From Candidatus Yanofskybacteria bacterium (GTDB lineage: Bacteria > Patescibacteriota > Minisyncoccia > Minisyncoccales > UBA10102): 64,000 bases of DNA. The notes below the pieces were generated by a model, which was not told the origin of the DNA, searched no databases, and saw only the letters and a program-made list of their open reading frames with translations. Position 1 is the stretch's first letter; every line of letters begins with the position of its first letter. The position numbers and the translations under genes were made by a program. Of this stretch, positions 1,646 to 16,552 are shown piece by piece. The DNA lies in contig JAUYJF010000006.1 in assembly GCA_030688685.1 (NCBI GenBank), forward strand, positions 120-64,119. The letters are read 5' to 3'.

Positions 1646-3037
1646 ATGCAAAAGCGACACCGCACGATTCTTTTTTTTGTTCTGGCCGTTCTCTTTCTGC
1701 TCATAGCCCCCTCGCTTGCCTTGTATTCCCAGGGATACCGCTTTGATTGGAATCAGAGGAAGGTTACGCAAACCGGCGCCTTTTTCTTTAAGGTATCCCC
1801 TACCCGCGTTTCCATTTTCATTGACGGGGAACCGATCAGCGGCACAGACTTCTTTTTTGGCACCACCTTAACCCGCAACTTTCTTCCCGGTCCCTATCAC
1901 ATACGATTGGAAAAAGAGGGATACATCTCTTGGGAAAGAACATTAGAAATTCAGGAGAATGCCGTTACGGAAGCAAAAAATGTTATCCTCTTTCCCGCGG
2001 ATCTTAAATTCCAGGCGCTCCAAGAAGGCATAGAGAAAATGTGGCCGTCCGCTTCAGGTTCAAAGATTGTGTTTTTGGAACAAACCTCCCAAGGAGCGCT
2101 TCAGCTTTCTCTCCTGGACCGGAGCACAAACAGAAAAACAGTCCTCACTGCACCCTTGAGCCGTTCCAGCGAGATTCTGCATGTTCTTTTTGATCCCCAG
2201 GAGGAACGGGTATTATTCCAGGTCGCGGGCCAGGAACAAATCAATACCTTTATTCATCATATCAGCGCTTCCGCCACTCTCTGCGGTCAGCGGGCTTGTT
2301 CTCTTTCTCTTGCCGTAGCTCCCAAAGAAGTTGTGTTTTCGTCTTCACCAAATCGCGTTCTTGTCCTGCGAAACCTCGGGACGATCCAAATTCTCCAAGA
2401 GACAGATTACACAACAGGCCGGGATCTCGCGTATTGGGGAACACATGTTGCGGCTTTTACGGTTTCAGGGCAGAATCTTCTCTGGCTTGAACGTGAGGGC
2501 ACCATGTGGAGCGTCAATCTTGGCCCCCAAGCGTCACCGCAGATGATGCAAACAGCAAAGTTCCCGGTACGGCAGGAAACCTCATACATCCTTTCTGCTG
2601 AGGCGGGAAGAATCTTCTTGCGGGAGGCGGAAAAAGCATACCTCATAAAGAACCAAGAATTCCAAGAGATTGGAAACGGGGTGCGGGATATGCGCGTCAG
2701 CCCAGACGGCCGCAAACTTCTCCTGTCTAATAACTCTGAGATATGGATCCTCATGCTTCAAGACGATGACAGTCAACCGCGAAAGAGAGAGGGAGACAGA
2801 ATATTCATCACCCGCTTGTCAGAGCCCATATCCTTACCTCTTTGGATTACATCTTCCCATCTCATCTTCTCTGTGGGAAATACCATCAAAATAGCGGAAA
2901 CAGATGACCGTGACCGGATTACTCCTCTTGAAATTGCTTCCTTTGTGAACCCTCAGATCTTCTGGAGAGATGGGGAAAGAACTCTTCATGTTCTAAGTGA
3001 AGGAACGCTCTACGCTTCAGAACGCCTTATGAACTAA
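1646..3037 (+). CDS. membrane-anchored PEGA-domain / beta-propeller-like protein
   Basis: An N-terminal TM helix (ILFFVLAVLFLLIAPSLALY) is followed by a PEGA-like segment (FFKVSPTRVSIFIDGEP...GPYHIRLEKEGY). The rest resembles a TolB-like repeat region. The start was chosen at the internal ATG next to the promoter; the ORF track begins at 1568. Confidence 0.65.
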   Translation: MQKRHRTILFFVLAVLFLLIAPSLALYSQGYRFDWNQRKVTQTGAFFFKVSPTRVSIFIDGEPISGTDFFFGTTLTRNFLPGPYHIRLEKEGYISWERTLEIQENAVTEAKNVILFPADLKFQALQEGIEKMWPSASGSKIVFLEQTSQGALQLSLLDRSTNRKTVLTAPLSRSSEILHVLFDPQEERVLFQVAGQEQINTFIHHISASATLCGQRACSLSLAVAPKEVVFSSSPNRVLVLRNLGTIQILQETDYTTGRDLAYWGTHVAAFTVSGQNLLWLEREGTMWSVNLGPQASPQMMQTAKFPVRQETSYILSAEAGRIFLREAEKAYLIKNQEFQEIGNGVRDMRVSPDGRKLLLSNNSEIWILMLQDDDSQPRKREGDRIFITRLSEPISLPLWITSSHLIFSVGNTIKIAETDDRDRITPLEIASFVNPQIFWRDGERTLHVLSEGTLYASERLMN

Positions 3038-3707: not shown

Positions 3708-4136
3708 CTATCTCTTCCGCCACTGTCGCGCGCGTCTTGCTCTCTTGAGCCCTGGTTTCTGGCGTTCTCTGGCGCGAGGATCTCTCTTAAGGAATCCGAG
3801 GGCCTTGAGCTGAGGGCGCGTTTCAGGATTCAGAGAAACAATGGCGCGGGTCAGGCCATGGCGAACCGCTTCTGCCTGCGCGTGTATGCCGGATCCTGAA
3901 ACCTGAACGGAAACATCAAAGGGGGTATCCAGAGCTTGGAGAGCCTGGCGAACAATCTTTTGATCTTGGGTACCCTGGAAATGCGCCTCCATGGTTTTTT
4001 CGTTCACGACAAATTTCTCCTCCTTGCCTTTTTGGATTCTTACCCGGGCAATGGCGGATTTTCTTCTCCCTATTCCCTCCCAGTACTGCGGGGAGTCGGG
4101 AGTCTTTTTCTGCTGTGTGACAGTCGCTTTTGCCAT
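3708..4136 (-). CDS. rpsI: 30S ribosomal protein S9
   Basis: GRRKSAIARV...GGG..GQA.A.RHG.TRA and a C-terminal RRxRxxxKR tail. Confidence 0.95.
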   Translation of the reverse strand: MAKATVTQQKKTPDSPQYWEGIGRRKSAIARVRIQKGKEEKFVVNEKTMEAHFQGTQDQKIVRQALQALDTPFDVSVQVSGSGIHAQAEAVRHGLTRAIVSLNPETRPQLKALGFLKRDPRARERQKPGLKRARRARQWRKR

Positions 4137-4850: not shown

Positions 4851-5663
4851 TTATTTCTTTTTTGCTTTCGCGATCTTTGATTTTTTCGTAACGGGCGAAG
4901 CTCTCTTAACGAGAGAAGGTTGCTTCTCTCGTTTCTTCTCAACTGACTTTTTCTGCTCGGCGAGAGGGACTTGCTTTTCCTGCTTTTCTGGGCCCGCGAT
5001 CAAAGAAAAATGGTCGGTAAGAATTTTCGCCGCCTGGTAAAAAGCGACCTCAGGATCCAGGGTGCCGTCAGTCTCTATCTCCAGAATGAGGCGGTCAAAA
5101 TCTGTTCGCTCTCCCACGCGCATATTCTCCACCTTTTGGCTCACGCGGCGAACAGGACTATAGGCGGCATCCAAAAGAATAGTGCCGATTTCCTCTTTCC
5201 CCTTTCTCCGGTGCTCCGCGAGAATATATCCGACTCCCCGCTCAATCTGAAGCTCCATGGAGAATTCTGCCTGCTTGTCGGTAAGGGTGGCTATGTGCTG
5301 ATCAGGATTGGCAAGCTCCAGCTGAGAAGGAAGTTTCAGATCAGAACCCTTCACTTCTTTTTCTCCCTTCACGTGCAAGGTTGCGTGCTGGGGCTCATCT
5401 CCATGAAGGCGAAAACGGAGCTGCTTGATGTTTAGAAGAATGGAAACCACATCTTCATATACGCCCGGAATGGTGGTAAACTCGTGGGTTCCCTGGCCTA
5501 CTCGCACTTGGGTTACCGCGGCTCCCTGCAGTGAGGAAAGAAGAACGCGGCGCATGGAGTTTCCTATGGTAATGCCATATCCCGGATACAGTCCTTCAAC
5601 TTCAAAAACACCTCTCGTGCTCGTTTTCTCTGAAACTTTTGGTACGTTTGGAAAAGGAATCAT
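4851..5663 (-). CDS. rpoA: DNA-directed RNA polymerase alpha subunit, N-terminal domain only, with a Lys-rich tail
   Basis: It matches the alpha N-terminal domain (GYGITIGNSMRRVLLSSLQGAAVT). The last ~45 aa are a low-complexity KKEKQ tail with no recognisable alpha C-terminal domain. Confidence 0.9.
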   Translation of the reverse strand: MIPFPNVPKVSEKTSTRGVFEVEGLYPGYGITIGNSMRRVLLSSLQGAAVTQVRVGQGTHEFTTIPGVYEDVVSILLNIKQLRFRLHGDEPQHATLHVKGEKEVKGSDLKLPSQLELANPDQHIATLTDKQAEFSMELQIERGVGYILAEHRRKGKEEIGTILLDAAYSPVRRVSQKVENMRVGERTDFDRLILEIETDGTLDPEVAFYQAAKILTDHFSLIAGPEKQEKQVPLAEQKKSVEKKREKQPSLVKRASPVTKKSKIAKAKKK

Positions 5664-7443: not shown

Positions 7444-8706
7444 TCAGAATGGCCGGCTTTCGTCAATATGGAGGTCTACCCGGATGCGATTCTCAGACCC
7501 GGGAACAGATTTTACCCAAAAAGGCCAGAGGGAAACCTTTGCCTGAGCCACCGACAGGTAGTCTGCCAGGATGCGCTCCGCGGCGCTTTCCTGGAGACCC
7601 TGGATCTGCTTCTTGATCTCAACTGGATCCACGGTTTCATAGGCAGTGCCGTGGGCTTCCATTTCCATGATCAGCACTTTTCCTTCTTCCTGCAAGCGGC
7701 CGTTCCCATAGGAAATCATCACCTCCCGCTCCAGTTCCTCATGGTGCAAAAGCCGCGTCCTCAGAAGTTCTGAGGCAAGCTCCTGGAGGTCTTCTAAGCG
7801 AAAGGCGACTCCCCGCACTTCTACCTTTGCAGAATAGTTAAATTCCCCGAGTTCCGCTCCTGGTCGAATGGGAGTTCCGGCCTCCAGAACGTGGAGTGAC
7901 AAAAGATCCGCGTCAAGCGTAAATCCGGCGGGAAGTTCAGCTTCCATGCTTTTATGCGCCTCCCGCTTGAGATCCGCGAGAATGGCATTCCGAGCCTGCT
8001 GAATGTCCTGATCGGTTACCACCGTGATCTGCTCAGTGCTTCCTCCTTTCATGGGTTCAAAGGACCTGGCGTATACCTGGGTATAAAGCGCGGATCCCGC
8101 GAGTCCCGGCAAAGCGAAATTTGATGATCCAATATTGTAACTCTCCCCCGCTTCGGCCGCTACAACCCGCACATCAAGCGTTCCCGGGGTCCCGGACGAG
8201 GCGGCCGCGGGAACAACAACGCGAGTCTCTATGCGAAAAAGTTTGTTATTTTCTGAAAGAAACCTCGTCTGGGCAACAAGCGTCTGGGCCGTTCTTTGGG
8301 TATTATAGACCCGAATGGTTCCCGTGGCGCGAGAACTCGCGCTTGAAAGCCCGAAAGCCGGATAGAGTTTTGTCGCTTGGCGCGATTCTGCAACCGCGTG
8401 TCCGGGAATTGAACGAATGAGCGGCTGAACAGCTTGAGAATCCGCAATAACGGAAACGCTTTCCTCCAGGGACAGTTCCCGAATCTGCGGCCAAACCTGC
8501 ACTTCTGCTTTTGCAAAAAAGAAATGCACCATGCCAAAGCCGCTCAAGAGCAGCAGCCCAAAAAGCATAAACAAGCTCCTTGGAACACGTCTTCCGTTCT
8601 GTTCATCTTCGTTCAAAGCATCTATGCGGAGCGTACGCTGAATGTCTCCCCGCCTGCCTACATGCGGCGGAGCTATGTCTATGATTTTTCTGTTATTTGA
8701 GGGCAT
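7444..8706 (-). CDS. single-pass membrane protein with a large extracytoplasmic domain, possibly PilN/PilO- or FtsQ-like (420 aa)
   Basis: A ~45-aa cytoplasmic N-terminus and one TM helix ([20 protein letters not shown]) precede a long ectodomain. It follows an FtsA/PilM-like ATPase gene. The function call is by position only. Confidence 0.5.
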
Positions 8707-9796
8707 AAGGCAAAAGAAGCATTGGAGTGTAGAGTGGATTTCCGGATCCTGGGAACTTGTCGTTTTTCGCGCAAAGGCTCGGGGTAAAAGAAGATATGGT
8801 CACGTGCTCTCCGAGAGCTTCGCGAAGCTTTTCCCGCAATACACTCTGAACTTCCGGAAGAAGTGATCCACCACCGGAAAGAAAAATGCGAGAACCAAGA
8901 ACGCGCTCACCCGAACACAGCGTCTCTACACATAGTGTAGCCCATCTCTCTGACTCTCGCAAGAACGCGCTGTGAAGTTTCGCGCGCAGGGGCTGAGAAA
9001 ACTCCCCCTGAGCATACCGCTCCTTGAGATCCCGCGCGCTCGCGTCCTGCATGCCGAGGATTCGTTCAAGATAGTGAGTGAAATACTTTGCTCCTCCTTT
9101 AAATTCTTGAAATGAAAGCAGCGTCCCCTGCCGCACCATGGCAACATGCGTCATGCTCTCTCCCATATCAATAAACGCGGAGTCTCCGCGAACACCCGGA
9201 AAGAAGCGCGCCGCTCCTTCTGCCATATGGACAAGCGAAACATCGGGGATCCCGGCAATCTCGTCAGTGTATCTGCGAGGAATGCACGTACCCAGATATC
9301 GGACGAGCAGCTGCTCTGCGGCAATTCCACGAAAGTCCTCTATCGCGTATCCATTCGCTTTCCGTTCCAGAACGCTCACGCGCGGAACTACGAGTTCCGC
9401 GGGAGTGATCCCCAATACTCTTGAGAAATACTCTTTGATGTCTTCCTCTGCCTTACTCTCCATTTCCTTTTCCAGGGTTTTTGCTTCCCTGTCGCTTATC
9501 GGACCTGAGCGTTTGCGCGCAAGAACATACTCTACCAGTTTTGCCCGGAAAATAGTCGGAGGGAAACTCAGGAGAACAGCATCCGGTTTTCCGTAGTGCG
9601 CCATCGCGGATTCCCGCATCCGCTCAACATCTTTTTTCCAGGAGAGCGCGTCGGTTTTCTTGTGCGAGAGAGAAAGAATATCCAGCGACTCTTTCCCCTG
9701 CCGAATCTGCGCTGACTTCATGAAAGAATCCCCGATATCCAAAAGAAAAAGGAGGGGGGAATCGCTTCTGGAATGAGACAACAGTGGAAATGCCAT
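8693..9796 (-). CDS. actin-like ATPase of the FtsA/PilM family
   Basis: The N-terminus has LLFLLDIGDSFMK (a phosphate-1-like motif). The C-terminus has IFLSGGGSLLPEV, which is typical of FtsA/PilM. Confidence 0.6.
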   Translation of the reverse strand: MAFPLLSHSRSDSPLLFLLDIGDSFMKSAQIRQGKESLDILSLSHKKTDALSWKKDVERMRESAMAHYGKPDAVLLSFPPTIFRAKLVEYVLARKRSGPISDREAKTLEKEMESKAEEDIKEYFSRVLGITPAELVVPRVSVLERKANGYAIEDFRGIAAEQLLVRYLGTCIPRRYTDEIAGIPDVSLVHMAEGAARFFPGVRGDSAFIDMGESMTHVAMVRQGTLLSFQEFKGGAKYFTHYLERILGMQDASARDLKERYAQGEFSQPLRAKLHSAFLRESERWATLCVETLCSGERVLGSRIFLSGGGSLLPEVQSVLREKLREALGEHVTISSFTPSLCAKNDKFPGSGNPLYTPMLLLPYALK

Positions 9797-9814: not shown

Positions 9815-11689
9815 TTACCCGTTCAGCCGCGCTTTTATGCGCCGAATGCCCGAAGACACAGCCTCTTCCTTTATAATTTTGAATACACCCAGCTCTTTGG
9901 TGTTCTGCGCGTGCGGTCCTCCGCAGAACTCCTTGCTGAATGCTTTTCCTTCCTTGTCCTGGGCAATATACACAGACACCACATCCCCGTATTTGACCCC
10001 GAATTCCATTTCAGCTCCCAATTTCAGAGCTTCCTCCTTTCGCATCTCTTTGCGCACCATATCAAGCTCCTCTTGGATCTTGGCATTCACGAGGTCTTCC
10101 ACTTGCTGAATCTGATCTTGGGTAAGTTTTGCAGGATAAGAGAAGTCAAGGCGCAGGCGTTCCGCGGTAATATTGCTCCCCCGCTGATGCACGTGGTCTC
10201 CAAGAATCTCTCGCAATGCCGCCAGCGTCAGATGGTGGGCGGTATGCAGTTTTGTCGTTTCGTAAGAAGTATCAGCCAAACCTCCCTTAAACTTGCCCGC
10301 GGAAGAGGTGCGGGAGAGCTCACGGTGCTCTTCTAAGAGCTTGCTGAACTCCTCCTTTTCAAGACCCATCCCCTCGCGTTCCGCGATTTCCTCCACCAGT
10401 TCAATGGGAAATCCATGGGTTGTAAAAAGAATGAACGCGTCCTGCCCCGAAACAACATTTCCTTTCTGGCGAATATGCTCTAAGAGTTTTAATCCTGTTT
10501 CCAAGGTTTTCGCGAATTTCTTTGCCTCCAGAGTGAGAATAATTCCAATCTCTTCCCGCTTCTGGGCGAGCTCCGGGTATGAGGATTTATAGAATTCAAT
10601 GTACGAGGATCCGATCTCAGAGATCCAGTTTGTTTCCTGTACACCCAATTGTCTTCCCTTAATCACAGACCTCCGAATAAGGCGGCGGAGAATGTATCCC
10701 CGCTCTTTATTGGAAGGCAGTACTCCGTCTGAAATCATCATAACAGAGCCTCGGATGTGGTCTGCGATCACGCGGAACGCCTCTTTGTTTTGCGCGTAGG
10801 GAATTCCCGCAACCTGTTCAATGGTCAGTAAGGCTTTTTGGAAAATATCCAGTTGAAATACGTCAGAATTTCCGGAAAGAGCGGCGGCAATCCGTTCCAG
10901 TCCTCCGCCAAAGTCCACGTTCCGCTGGGGCAGTTTTCCAAACGACCCGTCTTCTGCTTTCCGGTACTCCATGAACACAGAATTGCAGATTTCCATGAAT
11001 CTGCCGCAGTCGCAGTTTGGATGACATTCTTTCCCAAACGCGAGATTGTGCGGAGTATCCTCAAACTCATAGAATATTTCAGAATCAGGGCCGCCCGGCT
11101 CCCCCGTCGGCATCTTTTCAGGGACGCCAGATCTGCTCCACCAGTTTTTCTTGGAATCGTATAAGAAGATTCTTCCTCCCTGCATTCCTTTTTCGCTCCC
11201 CTGCTGTTCTGTTCCCAATTCCACCGCCTTTGCCTTAATCCCTTTTTCTTGGAACAGCTGCTTCCAAATCTCTATGGATTCTTCGTCCTTTGGTATTCCC
11301 AAGCGCGCGTCTCCCGCGAACGCCGTCACAGAGAGTTTTTCAGGATTGAAACCCAGCTCATCTGTCAAAAATGAAAAAACCCAGGGAAGCTGTTCCTGCT
11401 TAAAATACGCCCCGAGAGACCAGTTCCCCAGCATTTCAAAGAATGTGGTGTGCCGGTTATCTCCAACTTCATCAATATCTTCCGCGCGGAAGCACTTCTG
11501 GGAATTCACCAACCGCGTTCCCAGCGGATGCTTTTGCCCCAATAGATACGGCAAAAGCGGCTGCATGCCAGATCCCGTAAACAGAGTGGTGGGGTCGTTC
11601 TCTGGCACAAGCGAAGAAGAGGGAATAACAGTATGCCCTCTCTTCTGATAGAAGTCTAAGAACTTTTGCCGCACCTCGTTTGAATTCAT
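9815..11689 (-). CDS. alaS: alanine--tRNA ligase, short form (624 aa) lacking the C-terminal C-Ala domain
   Basis: Class II AlaRS N-terminal catalytic core (FTGSGMQP, CFRAEDIDE) is present. The editing domain HxxxH...CGG.H motifs are present (HTAHHLTLAAL, CGGPHAQNT). Canonical bacterial AlaRS is about 870 aa. Confidence 0.9.
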   Translation of the reverse strand: MNSNEVRQKFLDFYQKRGHTVIPSSSLVPENDPTTLFTGSGMQPLLPYLLGQKHPLGTRLVNSQKCFRAEDIDEVGDNRHTTFFEMLGNWSLGAYFKQEQLPWVFSFLTDELGFNPEKLSVTAFAGDARLGIPKDEESIEIWKQLFQEKGIKAKAVELGTEQQGSEKGMQGGRIFLYDSKKNWWSRSGVPEKMPTGEPGGPDSEIFYEFEDTPHNLAFGKECHPNCDCGRFMEICNSVFMEYRKAEDGSFGKLPQRNVDFGGGLERIAAALSGNSDVFQLDIFQKALLTIEQVAGIPYAQNKEAFRVIADHIRGSVMMISDGVLPSNKERGYILRRLIRRSVIKGRQLGVQETNWISEIGSSYIEFYKSSYPELAQKREEIGIILTLEAKKFAKTLETGLKLLEHIRQKGNVVSGQDAFILFTTHGFPIELVEEIAEREGMGLEKEEFSKLLEEHRELSRTSSAGKFKGGLADTSYETTKLHTAHHLTLAALREILGDHVHQRGSNITAERLRLDFSYPAKLTQDQIQQVEDLVNAKIQEELDMVRKEMRKEEALKLGAEMEFGVKYGDVVSVYIAQDKEGKAFSKEFCGGPHAQNTKELGVFKIIKEEAVSSGIRRIKARLNG

Positions 11690-11705
11690 TGCTTTAATGT
11701 ATCAT

Positions 11706-11740
11706 AAAAAAAGCATCCCGTTTAGTTTTTAGAGGGATGC
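11706..11740 (-). terminator. intrinsic terminator within the alaS leader, 17 nt upstream of the alaS ATG
   Basis: On the minus strand the sequence is GCAUCCC-ucuaaaaacuaaac-GGGAUGC-UUUUUUU. There is no room for a promoter between it and the ATG at 11689. Confidence 0.6.
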
Positions 11741-12018
11741 GATATAGTCTCCGCAGAGCTGAGAGCCAGGACAGAGCTAATGCGGATCAAGAAGTCCTAG
11801 CGAGGAGAGAGATTTCCGCTATACCCCCTCATCCGATTCCGTCCTGTCTCTGCAGCTCTCCAGAGGCTACCATGGTGTAACTCACCCTAATCTAGTTTTC
11901 CAAACAACTCCTGTTGAACTTTTATCACAGTTGAAGTTCTTCAACTTCAGTCAGGATAAAAACTCAATTGGAGGGGGCAGACATAAAGGATTGGACTTTC
12001 CTGCCTGCCCCAAAAAGA
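11741..12018 (-). promoter_or_regulatory. highly structured alaS 5' leader (candidate attenuator, T-box-like or other cis-regulatory RNA)
   Basis: There are nested inverted repeats. One is a 5' hairpin GGGGCAG...CUGCCCC. Another is the palindrome AGUUGAAGAACUUCAACU. The largest is an imperfect long hairpin of about 140 nt (CCUCUGGAGAGCUGCAGAGACAGGACGG ... GCUCUGUCCUGGCUCUCAGCUCUGCGGAG). The segment AGAUUAGGGUGAG resembles the T-box AAUUAGGGUGG core but is not next to the terminator. Confidence 0.4.
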
Positions 12019-12333
12019 TTATAAGTGCGTTCTCGCAGGATACAAGCGCACCACCTTTTTTGCGATGCATGCTTCGCCGAATTTTTCTTTCCAGGCTTCA
12101 ACAATCTCATCGCTGTTCTGCCCGGCCTCAATACGAGGTAGAACGAATTCGCGGGAGAGTCGTGCAGACGAAGGCACGACGCACCGCAGTTCGCATGCGC
12201 GCTTGTGAAGCGGCATGAGAACTTGCATGGCAATGGCCCATTGCCGAGCCATTGCCACTTCCTGGAATGTCGGCATGAATGGTGGACATTCTCCTAGAAT
12301 GTCCATTACAGTAGATGCCACCGACTCCGACAT
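12019..12333 (-). CDS. hypothetical small protein (104 aa)
   Basis: It has an AAGGAG RBS 6 nt upstream of the ATG. It is in an island of small genes and no family was recognised. Confidence 0.55.
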   Translation of the reverse strand: MSESVASTVMDILGECPPFMPTFQEVAMARQWAIAMQVLMPLHKRACELRCVVPSSARLSREFVLPRIEAGQNSDEIVEAWKEKFGEACIAKKVVRLYPARTHL

Positions 12334-12468
12334 TTTCTCTCCTTTCGTTTTTTCTTTCGGGCAATAAGCCCTAAAACATTTCTGCTCAAGAACTTATTGC
12401 CCAAAAGAAATCTATTTTTGAGTCAAAGAACTGCTTCCTCCTGTTGAATCTCCAAGTTTCCTTAGAAA

Positions 12469-12535
12469 CTCAATGAGAGTGGGAAGGGGCGCAAGGTCGT
12501 GCAGACCTCGATCCCTTCCCTTGTTTACCTCCTTT
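12469..12535 (-). repeat. conserved intergenic hairpin element, copy 1 (plus strand: CTCAATGAGAGT-GGGAAGGG...CCCTTCCC-TTGTTTACCTCCT)
   Basis: It shares GGGAAGGG/CCCTTCCC stem arms and the flanking CTCAATrAGAGT and TTTACCTCCT with copy 2 at 12897-12958. Each copy lies just downstream of a small minus-strand gene. The element includes an AGGAGGUAAA motif on the minus strand. Confidence 0.6.
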
Positions 12536-12546
12536 CTGCGGGGATG

Positions 12547-12855
12547 CTACCCCGCGTCGCTGATTGTAGCGTGTGGAAGGCGATGAAACGCCTCCCGCAA
12601 CTTCTCCGCCTGCTCCTCAGCAAGGACGCCCCTGCTGACGAGCTCCGGAAATATACTAACAAAAAACACATCCCCGCCGTCATCATACATATCTTCGTAG
12701 TAGAGGATTTGATTCTCCTCTACTACCACCGTTCCCTTCTCGTCATGGAACTGGAGTGTCTCCAGTCCCGGAATGACGTCGGGGTTGATGTCCGGAAAGG
12801 CGGCCACGAAATCCGCCTTTCGGACAAGTGTTATGTGCGATCCTCTGTAGGGCAT
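12547..12855 (-). CDS. small acidic hypothetical protein (102 aa)
   Basis: A GGAGG RBS is 5 nt upstream of the ATG. The sequence is D/E-rich. It has weak paralogy to 12950..13306 (YYEDMYDDGGDVFFVSIFPE versus YNGYAIATVVAEDVKEDRFFPGGE). Confidence 0.6.
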   Translation of the reverse strand: MPYRGSHITLVRKADFVAAFPDINPDVIPGLETLQFHDEKGTVVVEENQILYYEDMYDDGGDVFFVSIFPELVSRGVLAEEQAEKLREAFHRLPHATISDAG

Positions 12856-12896
12856 TTTGCCCTCCTATGAACCCCCAACAGTATAGTAATTGGGGG

Positions 12897-12958
12897 CTCA
12901 ATAAGAGTGGGAAGGGAAGCCGGAGTGCACCGACGATTCCCTTCCCCATTTACCTCCT
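12897..12958 (-). repeat. conserved intergenic hairpin element, copy 2
   Basis: CTCAATAAGAGT-GGGAAGGG-aagccggagtgcaccgacgatt-CCCTTCCC-CATTTACCTCCT. The stop codon of the upstream gene lies inside the AGGAGGTAAA motif of the element. Confidence 0.6.
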
Positions 12959-13306
12959 CCACCAACGCCACCACCTGCGCCGCCGCTTCAGGCGACGCAG
13001 CAGAATGGGATGAATTTGAATTTCAAGAATCACTATGCATGCGATCTTTCCGAAGCGGTCTTCACCGCCCGGAAAGAACCTATCCTCTTTAACATCTTCC
13101 GCTACCACAGTGGCTATGGCATAGCCGTTGTAGTTGTACGAAAAGATGTCGGGTACATATTGATCGTCCTCCAGTCCTCTGGAAAGACGATAAGCCCACC
13201 ACCTCGTCCTCTCTAGCGAGAGCGAAAAGTGGTGATACTCCCCAACCTCGTGGGGGACGTTCCCCGCGGAGGTGAGGGGAACAACCCGGAATCCTTGCGT
13301 GGTCAT
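12950..13306 (-). CDS. small hypothetical protein (118 aa) with an Arg/Trp-rich C-terminal tail encoded by the repeat element
   Basis: A GAAGGAGG RBS precedes the ATG at 13306. The C-terminus RRLKRRRRWWRWWRR is read through repeat copy 2. Confidence 0.55.
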   Translation of the reverse strand: MTTQGFRVVPLTSAGNVPHEVGEYHHFSLSLERTRWWAYRLSRGLEDDQYVPDIFSYNYNGYAIATVVAEDVKEDRFFPGGEDRFGKIACIVILEIQIHPILLRRLKRRRRWWRWWRR

Positions 13307-13393
13307 TCCTCGCCTCCTTCGGAGATCTTAATTTAATTTTGAAAGGTACTTCTTTCCCCTTCCCAAAAATACTTTTTCTAGAAAAGAATCTTT

Positions 13394-13439
13394 GGGAAAA
13401 GGAGCAGGCGCAAACGTAGCTTATTTACAACCTGCTCCA
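13394..13439 (-). terminator. intrinsic terminator immediately downstream of tRNA-Glu
   Basis: The GGAGCAGG/CCTGCTCC 8-bp stem is followed on the minus strand by TTTTCCC. Confidence 0.6.
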
Positions 13440-13448
13440 AAAAGTGCT

Positions 13449-13522
13449 CTGGTGGGGGCGAGGAGATTCGAGCTCCCGCTTCCGATGTGAAAGGCCGGTG
13501 ACCTTCCCGTAGTCGACGCCCC
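13449..13522 (-). tRNA. tRNA-Glu (anticodon UUC), CCA encoded
   Basis: My manual fold gives a 7-bp acceptor stem GGGGGCG/CGCCCCC, U8, a D-arm GACU/GGUC, the anticodon loop CUUUCAC (identical to the E. coli tRNA-Glu loop), a T-arm GGGAG-CUCGAAU-CUCCU, discriminator A and CCA. Length is 74 nt. Confidence 0.8.
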
Positions 13523-13641
13523 CACCGTAATGTGCTTGCTCCCGCGGTCCTTCCGGTGACTCCCCACCAGATTTCCGCTCATCGCGCGGAGCTTGCGCGC
13601 CCTGGTCTGACCCGCCAGGGAGGATTTTGACTGCGGTCTGC

Positions 13642-13983
13642 CTAGTCGACCACGTCCACCAGCACGTCCACCAGGCGAAAAGTGAACGTGGCGGCAGAGA
13701 TTTCCGCGTCGGTGAACTCGCGCGTCTCGCGCGGAACACCGGAAATCTCGGCCACTAGGCAGGAGTCCCCCGCCTCCAGGCGAATCCGCCCGCCCTTTGC
13801 AGAGCGAACATCAACGTCCAGATGCCGGGACACCGCGTCCAGGGTGTTCCCGTGGCTAGGGTTAGCCACGTTCTCCACTCCGGCGCGGATGAACTCCGCC
13901 GCTTCCTCGGGCGTTACCGTCCGAACGGCCACTTGGCCGTCGGGCAGCATGGAAAGCCCGAGGGTGGTATTGAAATACCTCAA
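13642..13983 (-). CDS. DUF1874 family protein (STIV B116 / AcrIII-1 / Crn2 ring-nuclease family)
   Basis: It aligns along its length with B116-like proteins. FNTTLGLSML matches FLTNAFSINML, NVANPSHGNTLDAVSRHL matches NAIGHDSTINLVNTL (with the conserved His), and RIRLEAGDSCLVAEI matches KVKMNEGDEALIIMI. The start was placed at TTG 13983, which has a perfect AGGAGG 5 nt upstream. The ORF track begins at 14109. Confidence 0.6.
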   Translation of the reverse strand: MRYFNTTLGLSMLPDGQVAVRTVTPEEAAEFIRAGVENVANPSHGNTLDAVSRHLDVDVRSAKGGRIRLEAGDSCLVAEISGVPRETREFTDAEISAATFTFRLVDVLVDVVD

Positions 13984-14332
13984 TTTTCCTCCTTTACCGG
14001 CATCCCATCTCGTTGCGGACTTATCGCGACAAGTTCTAGAGAACCGGAAATACTCGCTCTGTTTCCGGAGCGGCGAGCTGAACACTAATTTCTCTTGGAT
14101 CTCTTTCAATGAATCAAATACTGCAGATCAGATTAACTAATGCTCACTTCGCCGCTCCGGATGCATTTCAAAGAACAAACGGCTCCCTATATTGTTTGGA
14201 GAGAGCCGTTCAAGCAAAATTCGCTGCTATTTGCTAATCCTGCCTCTCTCCTTGCAGAACCAGCCCCTTTTTCTGTATTGACGCCAATATAACATACTAT
14301 TAAGAAAATGTCAAGTGCTGCGTGATGGTTCA

Positions 14333-14381
14333 ATAAAAAGGGGGCGAGAGCGCAAAACAACACGCGCGTTCATCGCCCCCC
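14333..14381 (-). terminator. intrinsic terminator after the 14398..14787 gene
   Basis: The GGGGGCGA/TCGCCCCC stem is followed on the minus strand by TTTTT. Confidence 0.6.
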
Positions 14382-14397
14382 TTCAGTAACCAAAGAG

Positions 14398-14787
14398 CTA
14401 GCTTGCGTAAACTGCGGATACGCTGTTTTGGAGTATCCACAAGAGCCGCCAGAGAGCTCCCTCTCCTTCCCTAAGCAGTATTCGTTCCTGGGCATCATCA
14501 ATGGCAATTTCCAATCGCCATTCCCCTTCAGGCTCCTTCGTGAAAACCCATAACTCCCCAGCGGTCTCAGGAGGCTCCATTACAAGGCTGTATACCTTGC
14601 CTGGAATTGAGACTACATCTATGGATATGTGACCTCCCCAAGAAGCCCGTAAGACGTACGAGGAGAGGGCTGCTTGCAGGCGCGCGATTGCCTCAAGCAC
14701 TGTTTCCAGGTTTTCCTGAGAGACTTCCAGGGAACCTCCGCCCCGGACAAACTTCTCCACCACCGCGCCAGCGTCGCGAGTAACCAT
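14398..14787 (-). CDS. hypothetical protein (129 aa)
   Basis: A GGAGG RBS is 5 nt upstream of the ATG and a terminator follows downstream. No family was recognised. Confidence 0.55.
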   Translation of the reverse strand: MVTRDAGAVVEKFVRGGGSLEVSQENLETVLEAIARLQAALSSYVLRASWGGHISIDVVSIPGKVYSLVMEPPETAGELWVFTKEPEGEWRLEIAIDDAQERILLREGEGALWRLLWILQNSVSAVYAS

Positions 14788-15085
14788 CTGTGCCTCCGTA
14801 TGTTTTTTGAGGATAAAACCCCTGTTGAATCCTCATCCATAGGATGAGAACTTAATGGGAGCGAGCAGGCGAAGGTATAATGAGTACTCTCCGCCTGCCC
14901 TTGTGTGCTACTTGGCAGGAGCGTTTTCTCCCTGCTTTTTACGGCAGGGAGCAAAAGCTCTTTGCCATGTTCTTGCCTTGTACCACGACACGCGGCTGCG
15001 TGGCACAAGGAAAGAGTATCCACTGAGCCAGTTCACCGTAACCATCATTTCTACCACCTCATCTGCCCGTATCTGCCATGGGCAA

Positions 15086-15400
15086 TCATTTACCGCATGC
15101 CTGCCGAAGAACTTCCACATCCTCTGGGCTGGGCCAATCGGCATACTGCCACATATGTGCTGGCGGGTGGTCGGCCAGCACAATTCCCGTCTCTCTGTCC
15201 ATTATCCAGAGAGTCCGGCCCCCCGCCGGGTTTATGATGGCTGCAACCATTACCACCCGATTAAAGGGCAGCGGAGCACCCGGCACAGATGCAAGGCGCA
15301 CAATGCGATCGCCATCCACCTCGTAGGTGCCCGGCGACAGTAGGCGTCGCCATTCCCAATCGTGCGCTTGCTGCCTGGTACTTTCCACAATGGCAGTCAT
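15086..15400 (-). CDS. hypothetical protein (~104 aa)
   Basis: The start was placed at the internal ATG, which has a GGGAGGGGAG RBS. The ORF track begins at 15490. Confidence 0.5.
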   Translation of the reverse strand: MTAIVESTRQQAHDWEWRRLLSPGTYEVDGDRIVRLASVPGAPLPFNRVVMVAAIINPAGGRTLWIMDRETGIVLADHPPAHMWQYADWPSPEDVEVLRQACGK

Positions 15401-15502
15401 AATACTCCCCTCCCGCGCATATCTTATGGAAAGGTCTATACTAGAAGTATCCCTTTCCCACGTTTTGTCAACCCCCCATGGAAAACTCACGAATTCTGCT
15501 CT

Positions 15503-16552
15503 TTAATGAGTCAGCACCCCTGCCCCAACCATCTCCTCTCCTTTATAGAACACCGCAAACTGCCCTGGAGTTATCGCGCGCTGGGCAGTCTGAAAGGAAA
15601 GGGTGTAGGAATCCTTTCCTGTTTCCGTAAGAGATACGGGAATTGATTGCTGGCGGTAGCGCAGGCGCACTTCCATGTCCAGATCCTGCGGCGCTTGGGG
15701 CAAGAGCCAATGCACGTTCGTCACATGCGCTTTTGCATGCAAGATATCTTTTTCCTGTTTGCTCACCGTAAGAGTGTTATTTAGCAGATCCTTTTCCACC
15801 ACATACCAGGGACCGCCAGACAAACCAATACCTTTTCTTTGTCCAATGGTGTAGTAGAAAGCGCCGTCATGCTCTCCCAATTTCTTGCCGGCTGTATCCA
15901 CGATAGAGCCCTTCTTTGGCTTGATGTACTGGCGCAAAAAGTCCCCGATCTCAATCTTGCCCACAAAACAAATCCCCTGGCTGTCTTTCCGCTCAGCATT
16001 AGGAAGACCGAACTTTTTTGCCATTTTTCTCACTTCGGTCTTTTTGTATTCTCCAATCGGGAAGAGAACCTTTGGTAAAACCTCAGGCCGAATAAAGGAG
16101 AGGAAATAGGACTGATCCTTCTCCTTATCTACACCTTGTAAAATGCGAGGCGCGGTACCATGCCGAGTAATACGGGCATAATGCCCTGTCGCCACATAAT
16201 CTGCCCCCAGAGCCATGGCACGCTCAAAAAAGAGACCGAACTTAATCTCTTTATTGCACATAATGTCCGGATTGGGAGTGAGTCCGCGGCGATATCCCTC
16301 CAGCATGTAATCCACTACTTTGGCGCGATATTCCACCAGGAAATTCCAGACATACAAGGGAATTCCCAGGTGCGCCGCTGCCAGCCTCGCTGACCGCTCA
16401 TCCTCTTGCGAGGTGCACGAGGCGCCTTCTGTCCAGCATTTCATGTATACCCCGATCACCTTGTATCCCTCTTTCCGCAAGAGAGCGGCGGCCACCGAAG
16501 AGTCCACGCCTCCGGAAAGTCCCACAAAAACTGTTTTCCCGTTCTGCTTCAT
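15503..16552 (-). CDS. mnmA: tRNA-specific 2-thiouridylase MnmA
   Basis: The PP-loop VFVGLSGGVDSSV is present. MnmA-type catalytic cysteines and C-terminal domains are present. Confidence 0.9.
   Translation of the reverse strand: MKQNGKTVFVGLSGGVDSSVAAALLRKEGYKVIGVYMKCWTEGASCTSQEDERSARLAAAHLGIPLYVWNFLVEYRAKVVDYMLEGYRRGLTPNPDIMCNKEIKFGLFFERAMALGADYVATGHYARITRHGTAPRILQGVDKEKDQSYFLSFIRPEVLPKVLFPIGEYKKTEVRKMAKKFGLPNAERKDSQGICFVGKIEIGDFLRQYIKPKKGSIVDTAGKKLGEHDGAFYYTIGQRKGIGLSGGPWYVVEKDLLNNTLTVSKQEKDILHAKAHVTNVHWLLPQAPQDLDMEVRLRYRQQSIPVSLTETGKDSYTLSFQTAQRAITPGQFAVFYKGEEMVGAGVLTH

Follow-up and report, generated by a model that had tools for sequence, protein, structure and literature searches.

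Signals that process RNA between cistrons have been described in several settings: RNase III sites lie between the early genes of phage T7, hammerheads occur in prophage transcripts, and tRNAs serve as punctuation. In T4-type phages, PeSL cassettes, which combine a terminator-like stem-loop with an early promoter, flank orphan open reading frames (ORFs) in hyperplastic regions. Here we examine a structured non-coding region in a 64,000-nt stretch of DNA (the window) from Candidatus Yanofskybacteria bacterium, a member of the candidate phyla radiation (CPR; Patescibacteria). The region (11690-12018 in window numbering, minus strand, 329 nt) extends from the stop codon of a small ORF, ORF7, to the ATG (11689) of alaS, the gene for alanyl-tRNA synthetase (AlaRS). 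An earlier note on this DNA had taken it for a leader of alaS. We favour, with moderate confidence, a reading in which it is not an alaS leader; it would instead be the terminal non-coding module of a foreign gene islet, in which a repeated unit (U) and a long hairpin (H3) act as RNA processing or stability punctuation, followed by an insulating terminator.

A structured region containing a repeated twin-hairpin unit

The 329-nt RNA has a folding energy of -130.5 kcal/mol, against -92.3 +/- 5.6 kcal/mol in dinucleotide shuffles (z = -6.8); none of 100 shuffles folds as well, and each sub-element is individually significant against shuffles. The features listed in the earlier note, a 5' hairpin, a palindrome, a T-box-like segment, a long hairpin and a terminator in a structured, leader-like stretch, are all present, whilst the sizes need adjusting: the region has 329 nt rather than 330, the terminator ends 16 nt rather than 17 nt from the ATG, and the long hairpin measures ~128 nt rather than about 140. 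From 5' to 3' the module consists of unit U, a short linker with a UUUGAAAAC-like box, H3 and an intrinsic terminator (Table 1).

We define unit U as a GC-rich hairpin (H1) followed within 0-1 nt by a second hairpin (P2; CUCC-NA-UUGAG...UUCAA-CA-GGAG), in the sense orientation between ORFs. The motif CUCnnAUUGAG...UUCAACAGGRG has four copies in the window, all in the islet, on the minus strand and shortly past an ORF stop codon, and all four fold as the same two adjacent hairpins. H1 differs in sequence in every copy, yet pairs in all of them, and the tip of P2 varies in length from 4 to ~30 nt. The copy in the region under study, unit D, makes up one third of it; its H1 begins 7 nt past the ORF7 stop codon, and the conserved UUGAG/UUCAA helix of its P2 carries an invariant G.U pair. 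A covariance model of U (R1), searched without filters against all 64 kb, gave these four units as its only strong matches, with a weak fifth after a tRNA-like gene.

Searching metagenomes with a strict pattern gave 26 loci; eight of these (five distinct sequences) have the full H1 and P2 with new H1 sequences. Outside its training set, R1 matches the contigs L224 (46.7 and 40 bits) and L229 (30.7 and 24.3 bits), each carrying an array of three U units in one orientation. In a nine-sequence alignment of U, 92% of cells are paired and nine pairs have changes on both sides; none of 500 shuffles reached the covariation score, and the slide control has a sharp maximum at register 0. All nine sequences keep one G.U pair unchanged, and this suggests that the ORF-sense strand is the functional one. 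U has no match in Rfam, and we found none in the literature on CPR structured RNA, attC or leaderless mRNA; on the sequence evidence it is a previously undescribed family of predicted structured elements that lie between small unrelated ORFs, in ORF orientation.

Islets of this kind occur at other chromosomal sites. In L213 the islet lies between rpsP and khpA, and in L218 a U unit stands ahead of rplJ, before both the promoter and the Rfam L10 leader of that gene. The conserved non-coding blocks that accompany the islets are element X (described below), the UUUGAAAAC-like box after U, and H3-type hairpins; the linker box UUUGGAAAAC (YUUUGAAAAY-like) recurs after other U units and after hammerheads, downstream of many modules. 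Loose motif scans of IMG/VR viral contigs gave only chance matches without the H1/P2 structure. A further conserved non-coding block of ~100 nt (AAUAGUUUCCCGGUUUCGUGAAACCGGGCGGGAUGUCUCGCUCCC...; L213 4750-4850 and L224 ~1800-1900 (-)) sits just upstream of a U unit; it follows two different GC-rich ORFs, with the homology boundary at or near the stop codon.

No homologue of H3 as a whole was found by sequence searches. Its apex motif AUAGCGGAAAUCUCUCUCC (11822-11804) is common to the window and the mnmA-alaS spacer of a relative, L082, which has no islet and in which the motif sits directly after the mnmA stop codon. Among ~2.2 Mb of collected sequence, GCGGAAA(N)CUCUCUC is found in the window and L082 only, and a GGAAA(N)UCUCUCUCC core related to the H3 apex is also present in the H3 of L241.

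A related array of small orphan ORFs beside a B116-like gene (contigs L247 and L248) bears on what U may do. Two of its spacers hold complete, predicted type III hammerhead cores in sense orientation, each with a stem I hairpin, CUGAUGAG, a stem II hairpin, CGAAAC and a GUC or GUU cleavage site. These sites are the sole matches to a strict hammerhead descriptor in the collected sequence, and their Rfam Hammerhead_3 scores (20.3 and 17.3 bits) lie below the 48.5-bit gathering score. An H1-type hairpin stands directly 5' of one of them; both finish with AACAGGAG, and in one case a UUGAAAAC box comes next, as after U; the remaining spacers hold U-like twin hairpins. Three kinds of element (U, hammerhead and tRNA-like) thus appear to occupy equivalent slots, and two of these are known RNA-cleavage signals. 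Because they fill equivalent slots, we infer that the U/H3 modules act as processing or stabilizing punctuation.

Other identities were considered and rejected. U is not a degenerate hammerhead: the 3' AACAGGAG is common to both and its tip is placed like stem II, but it is without stem I and the CUGAUGA/GAAA core, and the strict descriptor finds no site in the window. As a promoter, in which TTCAACA would resemble a -35 element, U is followed by no properly spaced -10 element after units A-C. A sequence recalling the P4 strand of RNase P, GGAAAGUCC (11999-11991), lies in the H1 loop, has no partner strand and gives no Rfam match at E <= 10. Two small ORFs within the region, of 14 aa (minus strand) and 47 aa (plus strand, 11737-11880), have neither a Shine-Dalgarno sequence nor toxin-like hydrophobicity.

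The terminator and the start of alaS

The hairpin nearest to alaS has a stem of seven base pairs (five G-C) with U7 directly after it, and is on this layout a predicted Rho-independent terminator; taken alone it folds at -11.5 kcal/mol (z = -3.7). A consensus terminator scan overlooked it because its 14-nt loop exceeds the 3-8 nt that the scan allows. In the partition function of the 329-nt RNA the stem pairs form with p = 0.995-0.998, and the only upstream complementarity of the hairpin is to the terminator loop. With the terminator at p >= 0.995 and upstream pairing of its 5' arm at p <= 0.002, the folding model shows no attenuator switch. Most likely this terminator ends the islet transcript.

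The earlier note had reasoned that there is no space for an alaS promoter after the terminator, and that alaS must be transcribed by read-through under attenuation or riboswitch control. This reasoning fails when related loci are considered. Among 77 related CPR alaS loci, a hexamer matching TATAAT in at least five of six positions and ending 4-12 nt before the ATG is present in 46 (mode 7 nt), against 2-9 of 77 in control zones. A TGn extension accompanies 26 of the 46 boxes, a Shine-Dalgarno-like sequence precedes alaS in 4 of the 77 loci, and the T-tract of an upstream terminator abuts the -10 box in L003, L033, L040, L064 and L082. The pattern implies that alaS mRNAs would be leaderless across Saccharibacteria and Parcubacteria (46/77). 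The window shares this geometry, with the terminator, the predicted -10 box and the ATG abutting and with no Shine-Dalgarno sequence (no GGAG) before the ATG. Of its two candidate -10 elements, TATGAT ends 11 nt before the ATG, which is also the spacing in L081, the closest relative, and TGaTACATT ends at 6 nt; either would give a leaderless or very short-leader mRNA. Since the -10 boxes of the relatives abut the ATG and the window has the same geometry, alaS need not depend on read-through, and its transcription most likely begins at a promoter of its own, immediately downstream of the terminator.

The start assigned to alaS is correct, since the alignment with every relative begins at N-terminal residue 1, and Pfam tRNA-synt_2c begins at residue 5. 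Outside its own metagenome-assembled genome, the next-best AlaRS relative among 5.8 billion proteins has 66% protein identity, so no close genome is available for comparison. We used 82 related alaS loci (L001-L082), of which L081 and L082 are the two closest whose context was obtained. In the 25 nt upstream of alaS across L001-L082, a TATAAT-like box, often with TGn, stands ~7 nt before the ATG in most clade members. In L081 and L082, mnmA precedes alaS at 18 and 117 nt, respectively, and alaS is followed by the same two uncharacterized genes as in the window (the 367/420-aa pair) and then by infA, rpsM, rpsK and rpsD. Overall, mnmA lies upstream on the same strand in 29 of the 82 loci; the gap is <= 143 nt in 15 of these and 389-3487 nt in the other 14, with 3813 nt in the window. 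The mnmA-alaS junction would therefore be ancestrally tight and also a recurrent insertion point. Between an RNaseH-like gene and mnmA, L082, the second-closest relative by AlaRS identity, carries a tandem pair of non-coding units (~350 nt each; 1850-2750) with 71-87% identity in blocks; both have GC-rich hairpins and a promoter-like end, and this stretch has no called genes.

Conservation with alaS is lacking for the 329-nt region: blastn and nhmmer searches found no homologue of it upstream of alaS in the 82 related loci, among which the two closest relatives have spacers of 18-117 nt, and R1 found no unit U there. This comparison gives no support to the earlier suggestion of an AlaRS-binding autoregulatory element. 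A covariance-model scan of 11000-13000 against Rfam with permissive filters found no match to a T-box (RF00230), a riboswitch, RNase P or a hammerhead at E <= 10, and none to any other family in the 329-nt region; at the gathering threshold the whole window yields one tRNA only. A divergent T-box, the other option raised earlier, is further contradicted by the position of the T-box-like heptamer, which falls in the linker of a repeated unit, ~140 nt from the 5' arm of the terminator and with the 128-nt hairpin between them, and by the lack of a competing antiterminator.

The islet and its genes

The 3.8-kb islet holds seven small, mutually unrelated ORFs with good Shine-Dalgarno sequences and without any Pfam or PHROG match above cut-off. 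ORF7 is an orphan, for which only the protein itself was found among the 5.8 billion. ORF4 stands out with 64% GC (GC at third codon positions, 0.78) against ~50% GC in neighbouring genes and the genome. Its homologues reach 86% protein identity, with 81% DNA identity to the metagenome contig L237, and because these are far closer than any housekeeping gene (AlaRS best 66%), ORF4 appears to have been horizontally transferred. Together, the missing Pfam and PHROG matches, the orphan ORF7, the GC content of ORF4 with its DNA identity to L237, and its predicted B116/AcrIII-1 fold lead us to judge that the islet is foreign, horizontally acquired and inserted between mnmA and alaS.

The fold of ORF4 was approached by structure prediction. 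The AlphaFold model has a predicted local distance difference test (pLDDT) score of 95.4, and the top Foldseek matches are 2j85, 6scf (AcrIII-1), 2x4i and Crn2, with template modelling (TM) scores of 0.6-0.75 and probability 1.0. The Pfam STIV_B116-like match scores 16.9 bits, below the cut-off (26 bits); a PDB sequence search gave no match, nor did tblastn against GenBank phages. Membership of the STIV B116/AcrIII-1/Crn2 family (DUF1874) is defined by the fold together with a catalytic His and Glu that cleave cyclic tetra-adenylate; the ORF4 family alignment has an invariant His, which may correspond to the catalytic one. AcrIII-1 is an anti-CRISPR ring nuclease (bioRxiv 10.1101/778746, PMC8284326). 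Given this predicted fold and the DNA identity to L237, ORF4 looks like a mobile gene of anti-CRISPR type carried by a CPR genome.

Several non-coding features complete the islet. The arms of element X are conserved in sequence (GCGGCGAARUGARCAUUAG / UUAGUGUUCAGYUCGCYGC) without a match in Rfam; the element recurs at L237 ~4890-4975, L213 ~3960-4055 and 5450-5540, and L229 1-76, and sits in the 5' untranslated region (UTR) of B116-like and other GC-rich ORFs. The near-consensus internal promoter (14314-14286) probably starts the transcript that would end at 11706. The enzyme made from mnmA, the gene directly upstream of the islet with its tRNA-Glu-like gene, thiolates tRNA-Glu, tRNA-Lys and tRNA-Gln. 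The C-terminal tail of ORF5 (RRLKRRRRWWRWWRR; window 12950-13000 (-)) is GGN-rich coding sequence running into unit B; it may be accidental read-in, because the block GGAGGUAAA, coding at this position, recurs as non-coding sequence before unit C. Two database matches in the islet were rejected: a weak PrrB_RsmZ match at 12910-13069, which takes in the sequence of the ORF5 tail (23 bits against a gathering score of 44 bits), suggestive of a CsrA/RsmZ-like RNA, reflects GGA-rich repeat sequence, and an Rfam miRNA match to the H3-type hairpin after unit C is spurious.

Table 1. Positions of the genes, hairpins and signals discussed; window numbering except for the last row, bit scores from model R1 unless stated otherwise
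Feature	Position	Strand	Description
Two conserved genes	7444-9796	minus	367 and 420 aa, no Pfam match; after alaS, before infA-rpsM-rpsK-rpsD-rpoA
alaS	9815..11689	minus	624 aa, short CPR-type AlaRS; Pfam tRNA-synt_2c and tRNA_SAD
Islet	11690..15502	minus	3813 nt between mnmA and alaS
Candidate alaS -10 elements	11696..11706	minus	TATGAT 11706-11701; TGaTACATT 11704-11696 (extended -10)
Intrinsic terminator (predicted)	11706..11740	minus	GCAUCCC 11740-11734, 14-nt loop, GGGAUGC 11719-11713, U7 11712-11706
H3	11744..11871	minus	Long imperfect hairpin, ~128 nt; -67.3 kcal/mol, z = -5.5
Linker	11872..11907	minus	Box UUUGGAAAAC (11904-11895) and T-box-like AGAUUAGGGUGAG (11893-11881)
Unit D	11908..12011	minus	65.8 bits, E ~5e-13; first 104 nt of the 329-nt region
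P2 of unit D	11908..11973	minus	CUCC/GGAG base, 2x2 internal loop (AA / CA), UUGAG/UUCAA helix, variable tip
18-nt palindrome	11946-11929	minus	AGUUGAAGAACUUCAACU, within the variable tip of P2 of unit D
H1 of unit D	11974..12011	minus	GC-rich hairpin GGGGCAG...CUGCCCC, from folding; first hairpin of unit U
ORF7	12019..12333	minus	104 aa, good Shine-Dalgarno; last islet gene, with the 329-nt region as its downstream flank
Unit C	12438..12521	minus	67.1 bits; then H3-type hairpin 12412-12350 (whole entry 12340..12521)
Unit B	12862..12947	minus	62.7 bits; 3' GGAGG is the Shine-Dalgarno of ORF6
Degenerate twin hairpin	13438-13360	minus	17.9 bits, E = 0.035; after the tRNA-like gene
tRNA-like gene, Glu (UUC)	13450-13523	minus	Between two islet ORFs; encoded CCA end; low tRNA score (45.4 bits)
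ORF4	13642..13983	minus	64% GC; predicted STIV B116/AcrIII-1/Crn2 fold
Element X	14065..14160	minus	Long conserved hairpin in the 5' UTR of ORF4; shared with L237, L213, L229
Internal islet promoter (predicted)	14286..14314	minus	TTGACA-17-TATATT, 11/12, TG extension
Internal islet terminator	14380-14335		
Unit A	14819..14901	minus	54-58 bits
mnmA	15503-16552	minus	Upstream of the islet
Hammerhead motifs	L247 3048-3127, 5120-5170; L248 2328-2407, 4400-4450	sense	Identical in the two contigs

Weighing the readings against known systems

In the mechanism that we propose, a polycistronic transcript would run through the islet, probably starting at the strong promoter (14314-14286). Within this RNA the U/H3 modules would be punctuation, marking where the RNA is processed and/or its 3' ends are protected, so that the cistrons are separated and stabilized. 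The final terminator would stop islet transcription and insulate alaS; the alaS mRNA, leaderless or nearly so, would begin from the gene's own -10 element next to the start codon, as in the relatives. This comes close to an option that the earlier note had kept in hedged form, an unrelated non-coding RNA terminating before alaS, except that we see in it the last spacer module and terminator of an islet.

A number of points weigh against this reading. The promoter, the use of the terminator and any processing are all predictions from sequence; U lacks a hammerhead core and offers no position at which cleavage could be placed. The covariation sample is small (nine sequences, several of them related), and the strand asymmetry of folding energy is mixed, with units B and C favouring the sense strand and M1 and M3 slightly the antisense strand, which may leave room for a role of U in single-stranded DNA. 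The homology of the H3 apex with L082 means that part of the 329-nt region may predate the islet at this locus. On the side of alaS, the -10 candidates in the window are imperfect (5/6 without TG, or 4/6 with TG), and an ATG-anchored weight matrix gives them only modest support (3.6 bits, above 96.5% of controls).

An explanation at the DNA level is unlikely but deserves the closest attention among the alternatives. Here U, and perhaps X and H3, would be recombination sites or recombination-prone conserved spacers delimiting mobile gene cassettes; they could act as folded single strands, in the manner of integron attC, or provide the homology for exchange, as the promoter-stem-loop spacers of T4-type phages do. 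Such a role would account for unrelated ORFs between conserved modules in ORF-U-ORF-U arrays, and for the same modules flanking different ORFs on different contigs, as with the block AAUAGUUUCCCGG... after different ORFs in L213 and L224. It is also consistent with the different combinations of H1 and P2 variants in M1, M2 and M3, with the attC-like layout of P2 (short conserved base, internal loop, conserved helix, tip of variable length), with islets at different chromosomal sites (mnmA|alaS, rpsP|khpA, upstream of rplJ) and with the frequent position of arrays at contig ends. However, no integrase, transposase or other recombinase was found in or beside the islet (islet ORFs and flanks; the rest of the window was not scanned protein by protein), and no target-site duplication was seen at the islet ends. 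The arms read 5'-TTGAG...TTCAA-3' and not, on either strand, the attC signature 5'-RYYYAAC...GTTRRRY-3'. H1 keeps its pairing and not its sequence, and the invariant G.U is strand-specific; double-stranded DNA sites would select for neither. The hammerheads and the tRNA-like gene in equivalent slots are, moreover, RNA devices.

Within an RNA-level account, a more specific proposal can be framed, which we hold to be distinctly doubtful: that U, the linker box and H3 together form an RNA cleavage signal of a class not seen before, whether as a self-cleaving ribozyme or as the dedicated substrate of a host RNase, interchangeable with hammerheads and tRNA-like punctuation, for cutting the polycistronic transcripts of small anti-defence or orphan-gene islets moving between CPR genomes.

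It is improbable that the segment ~11890-11706 (long hairpin and terminator), or the whole region, is a stand-alone small RNA gene with its own promoter, unrelated to alaS and ORF7. The very stable structure ending in a terminator would suit such a gene, a weak promoter-like TCAACA-17-TAGATT overlaps the end of unit D, and the H3 apex motif is conserved in the islet-free L082; set against this, a sigma-70 scan found no minus-strand promoter within 11690-12018, the region begins 7 nt past the ORF7 stop codon with a unit that is plainly intercistronic elsewhere, Rfam gives no match, and the long hairpin as a whole is without a homologue. Last, a cis-regulatory alaS leader (divergent T-box, other riboswitch or attenuator, or AlaRS-binding operator) with expression by regulated read-through only, to which the terminator 16 nt before an ATG that has no Shine-Dalgarno sequence, the lack of a consensus -35/-10 pair for alaS in the promoter scan and the 7-nt match of UAGGGUG to the T-box consensus had pointed, is largely refuted and very improbable, given the lack of an antiterminator and of conservation with alaS, the -10 boxes of the relatives, a third of the region being a unit repeated between unrelated ORFs and on contigs far from alaS, and the palindrome being the variable tip of P2.

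For alaS itself the outcome of our favoured reading, a terminal islet module with punctuation and an insulating terminator, is deflationary, in that there is no new aminoacyl-tRNA synthetase (aaRS) riboswitch here. The abutment of terminator, -10 box and ATG looks like the normal start of alaS in these CPR genomes, probably leaderless, and makes a useful annotation rule. What is gained is the U family, absent from Rfam and found between the orphan genes of small islets that interrupt CPR housekeeping operons. If U units are processing sites, they show how minimal genomes express acquired gene arrays, and the covariance model would be a handle by which further islets could be located; as recombination sites, they would instead define a cassette system without an adjacent integrase.

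Among known systems, T-box leaders share with this locus a long structured RNA before an aaRS gene, an intrinsic terminator and the UAGGGUG heptamer. They differ in that the region matches no T-box covariance model and has no identified Stem I or specifier architecture, the T-box-like AGAUUAGGGUGAG is not part of an antiterminator competing with the terminator, and the region is not conserved with alaS, part of it being a repeat between unrelated genes. REP/BIME, ERIC, BOX and Correia/NEMIS elements are likewise structured repeats of ~100 nt that are co-transcribed in operons and may affect mRNA stability or processing, but they are dispersed genome-wide in both orientations, whereas U is confined to the islet (4/4 strong matches in 64 kb), is always in sense, and occurs on distantly related contigs.

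Integron attC arrays, including clusters of attC sites lacking integrases (CALIN), resemble the islets in that after each of the unrelated, mostly promoterless small ORFs comes an imperfect palindrome whose ends are conserved and whose centre varies in length. The arms of U, (A)TTGAG(Y) 5' and (R)TTCAAC 3', stand in the reverse order of the attC arms on both strands, and U has in addition H1, a strand-specific G.U and RNA devices in equivalent slots, with no integrase found. As in PeSL cassettes, conserved structured spacers flank orphan ORFs, and the same spacers accompany different ORFs in different genomes; unlike PeSL, the U units have no recognizable promoter, lie in chromosomal islets and not in phage genomes, and have no IMG/VR or GenBank phage match to their modules.

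The processing signals of phage and mobile operons differ from U in that the cleavage of U is a prediction, neither its sequence nor its twin-hairpin layout fits a described RNase III site or ribozyme class, and the hosts here are CPR bacteria. In common with those signals, U units are conserved hairpins with an internal loop between small genes, all in sense, and cleavage would leave a stable hairpin at the 3' end of the upstream cistron. The likeness extends to the company that U keeps, with hammerhead motifs in the same slot of a related array and a tRNA-like gene in the islet of the window.

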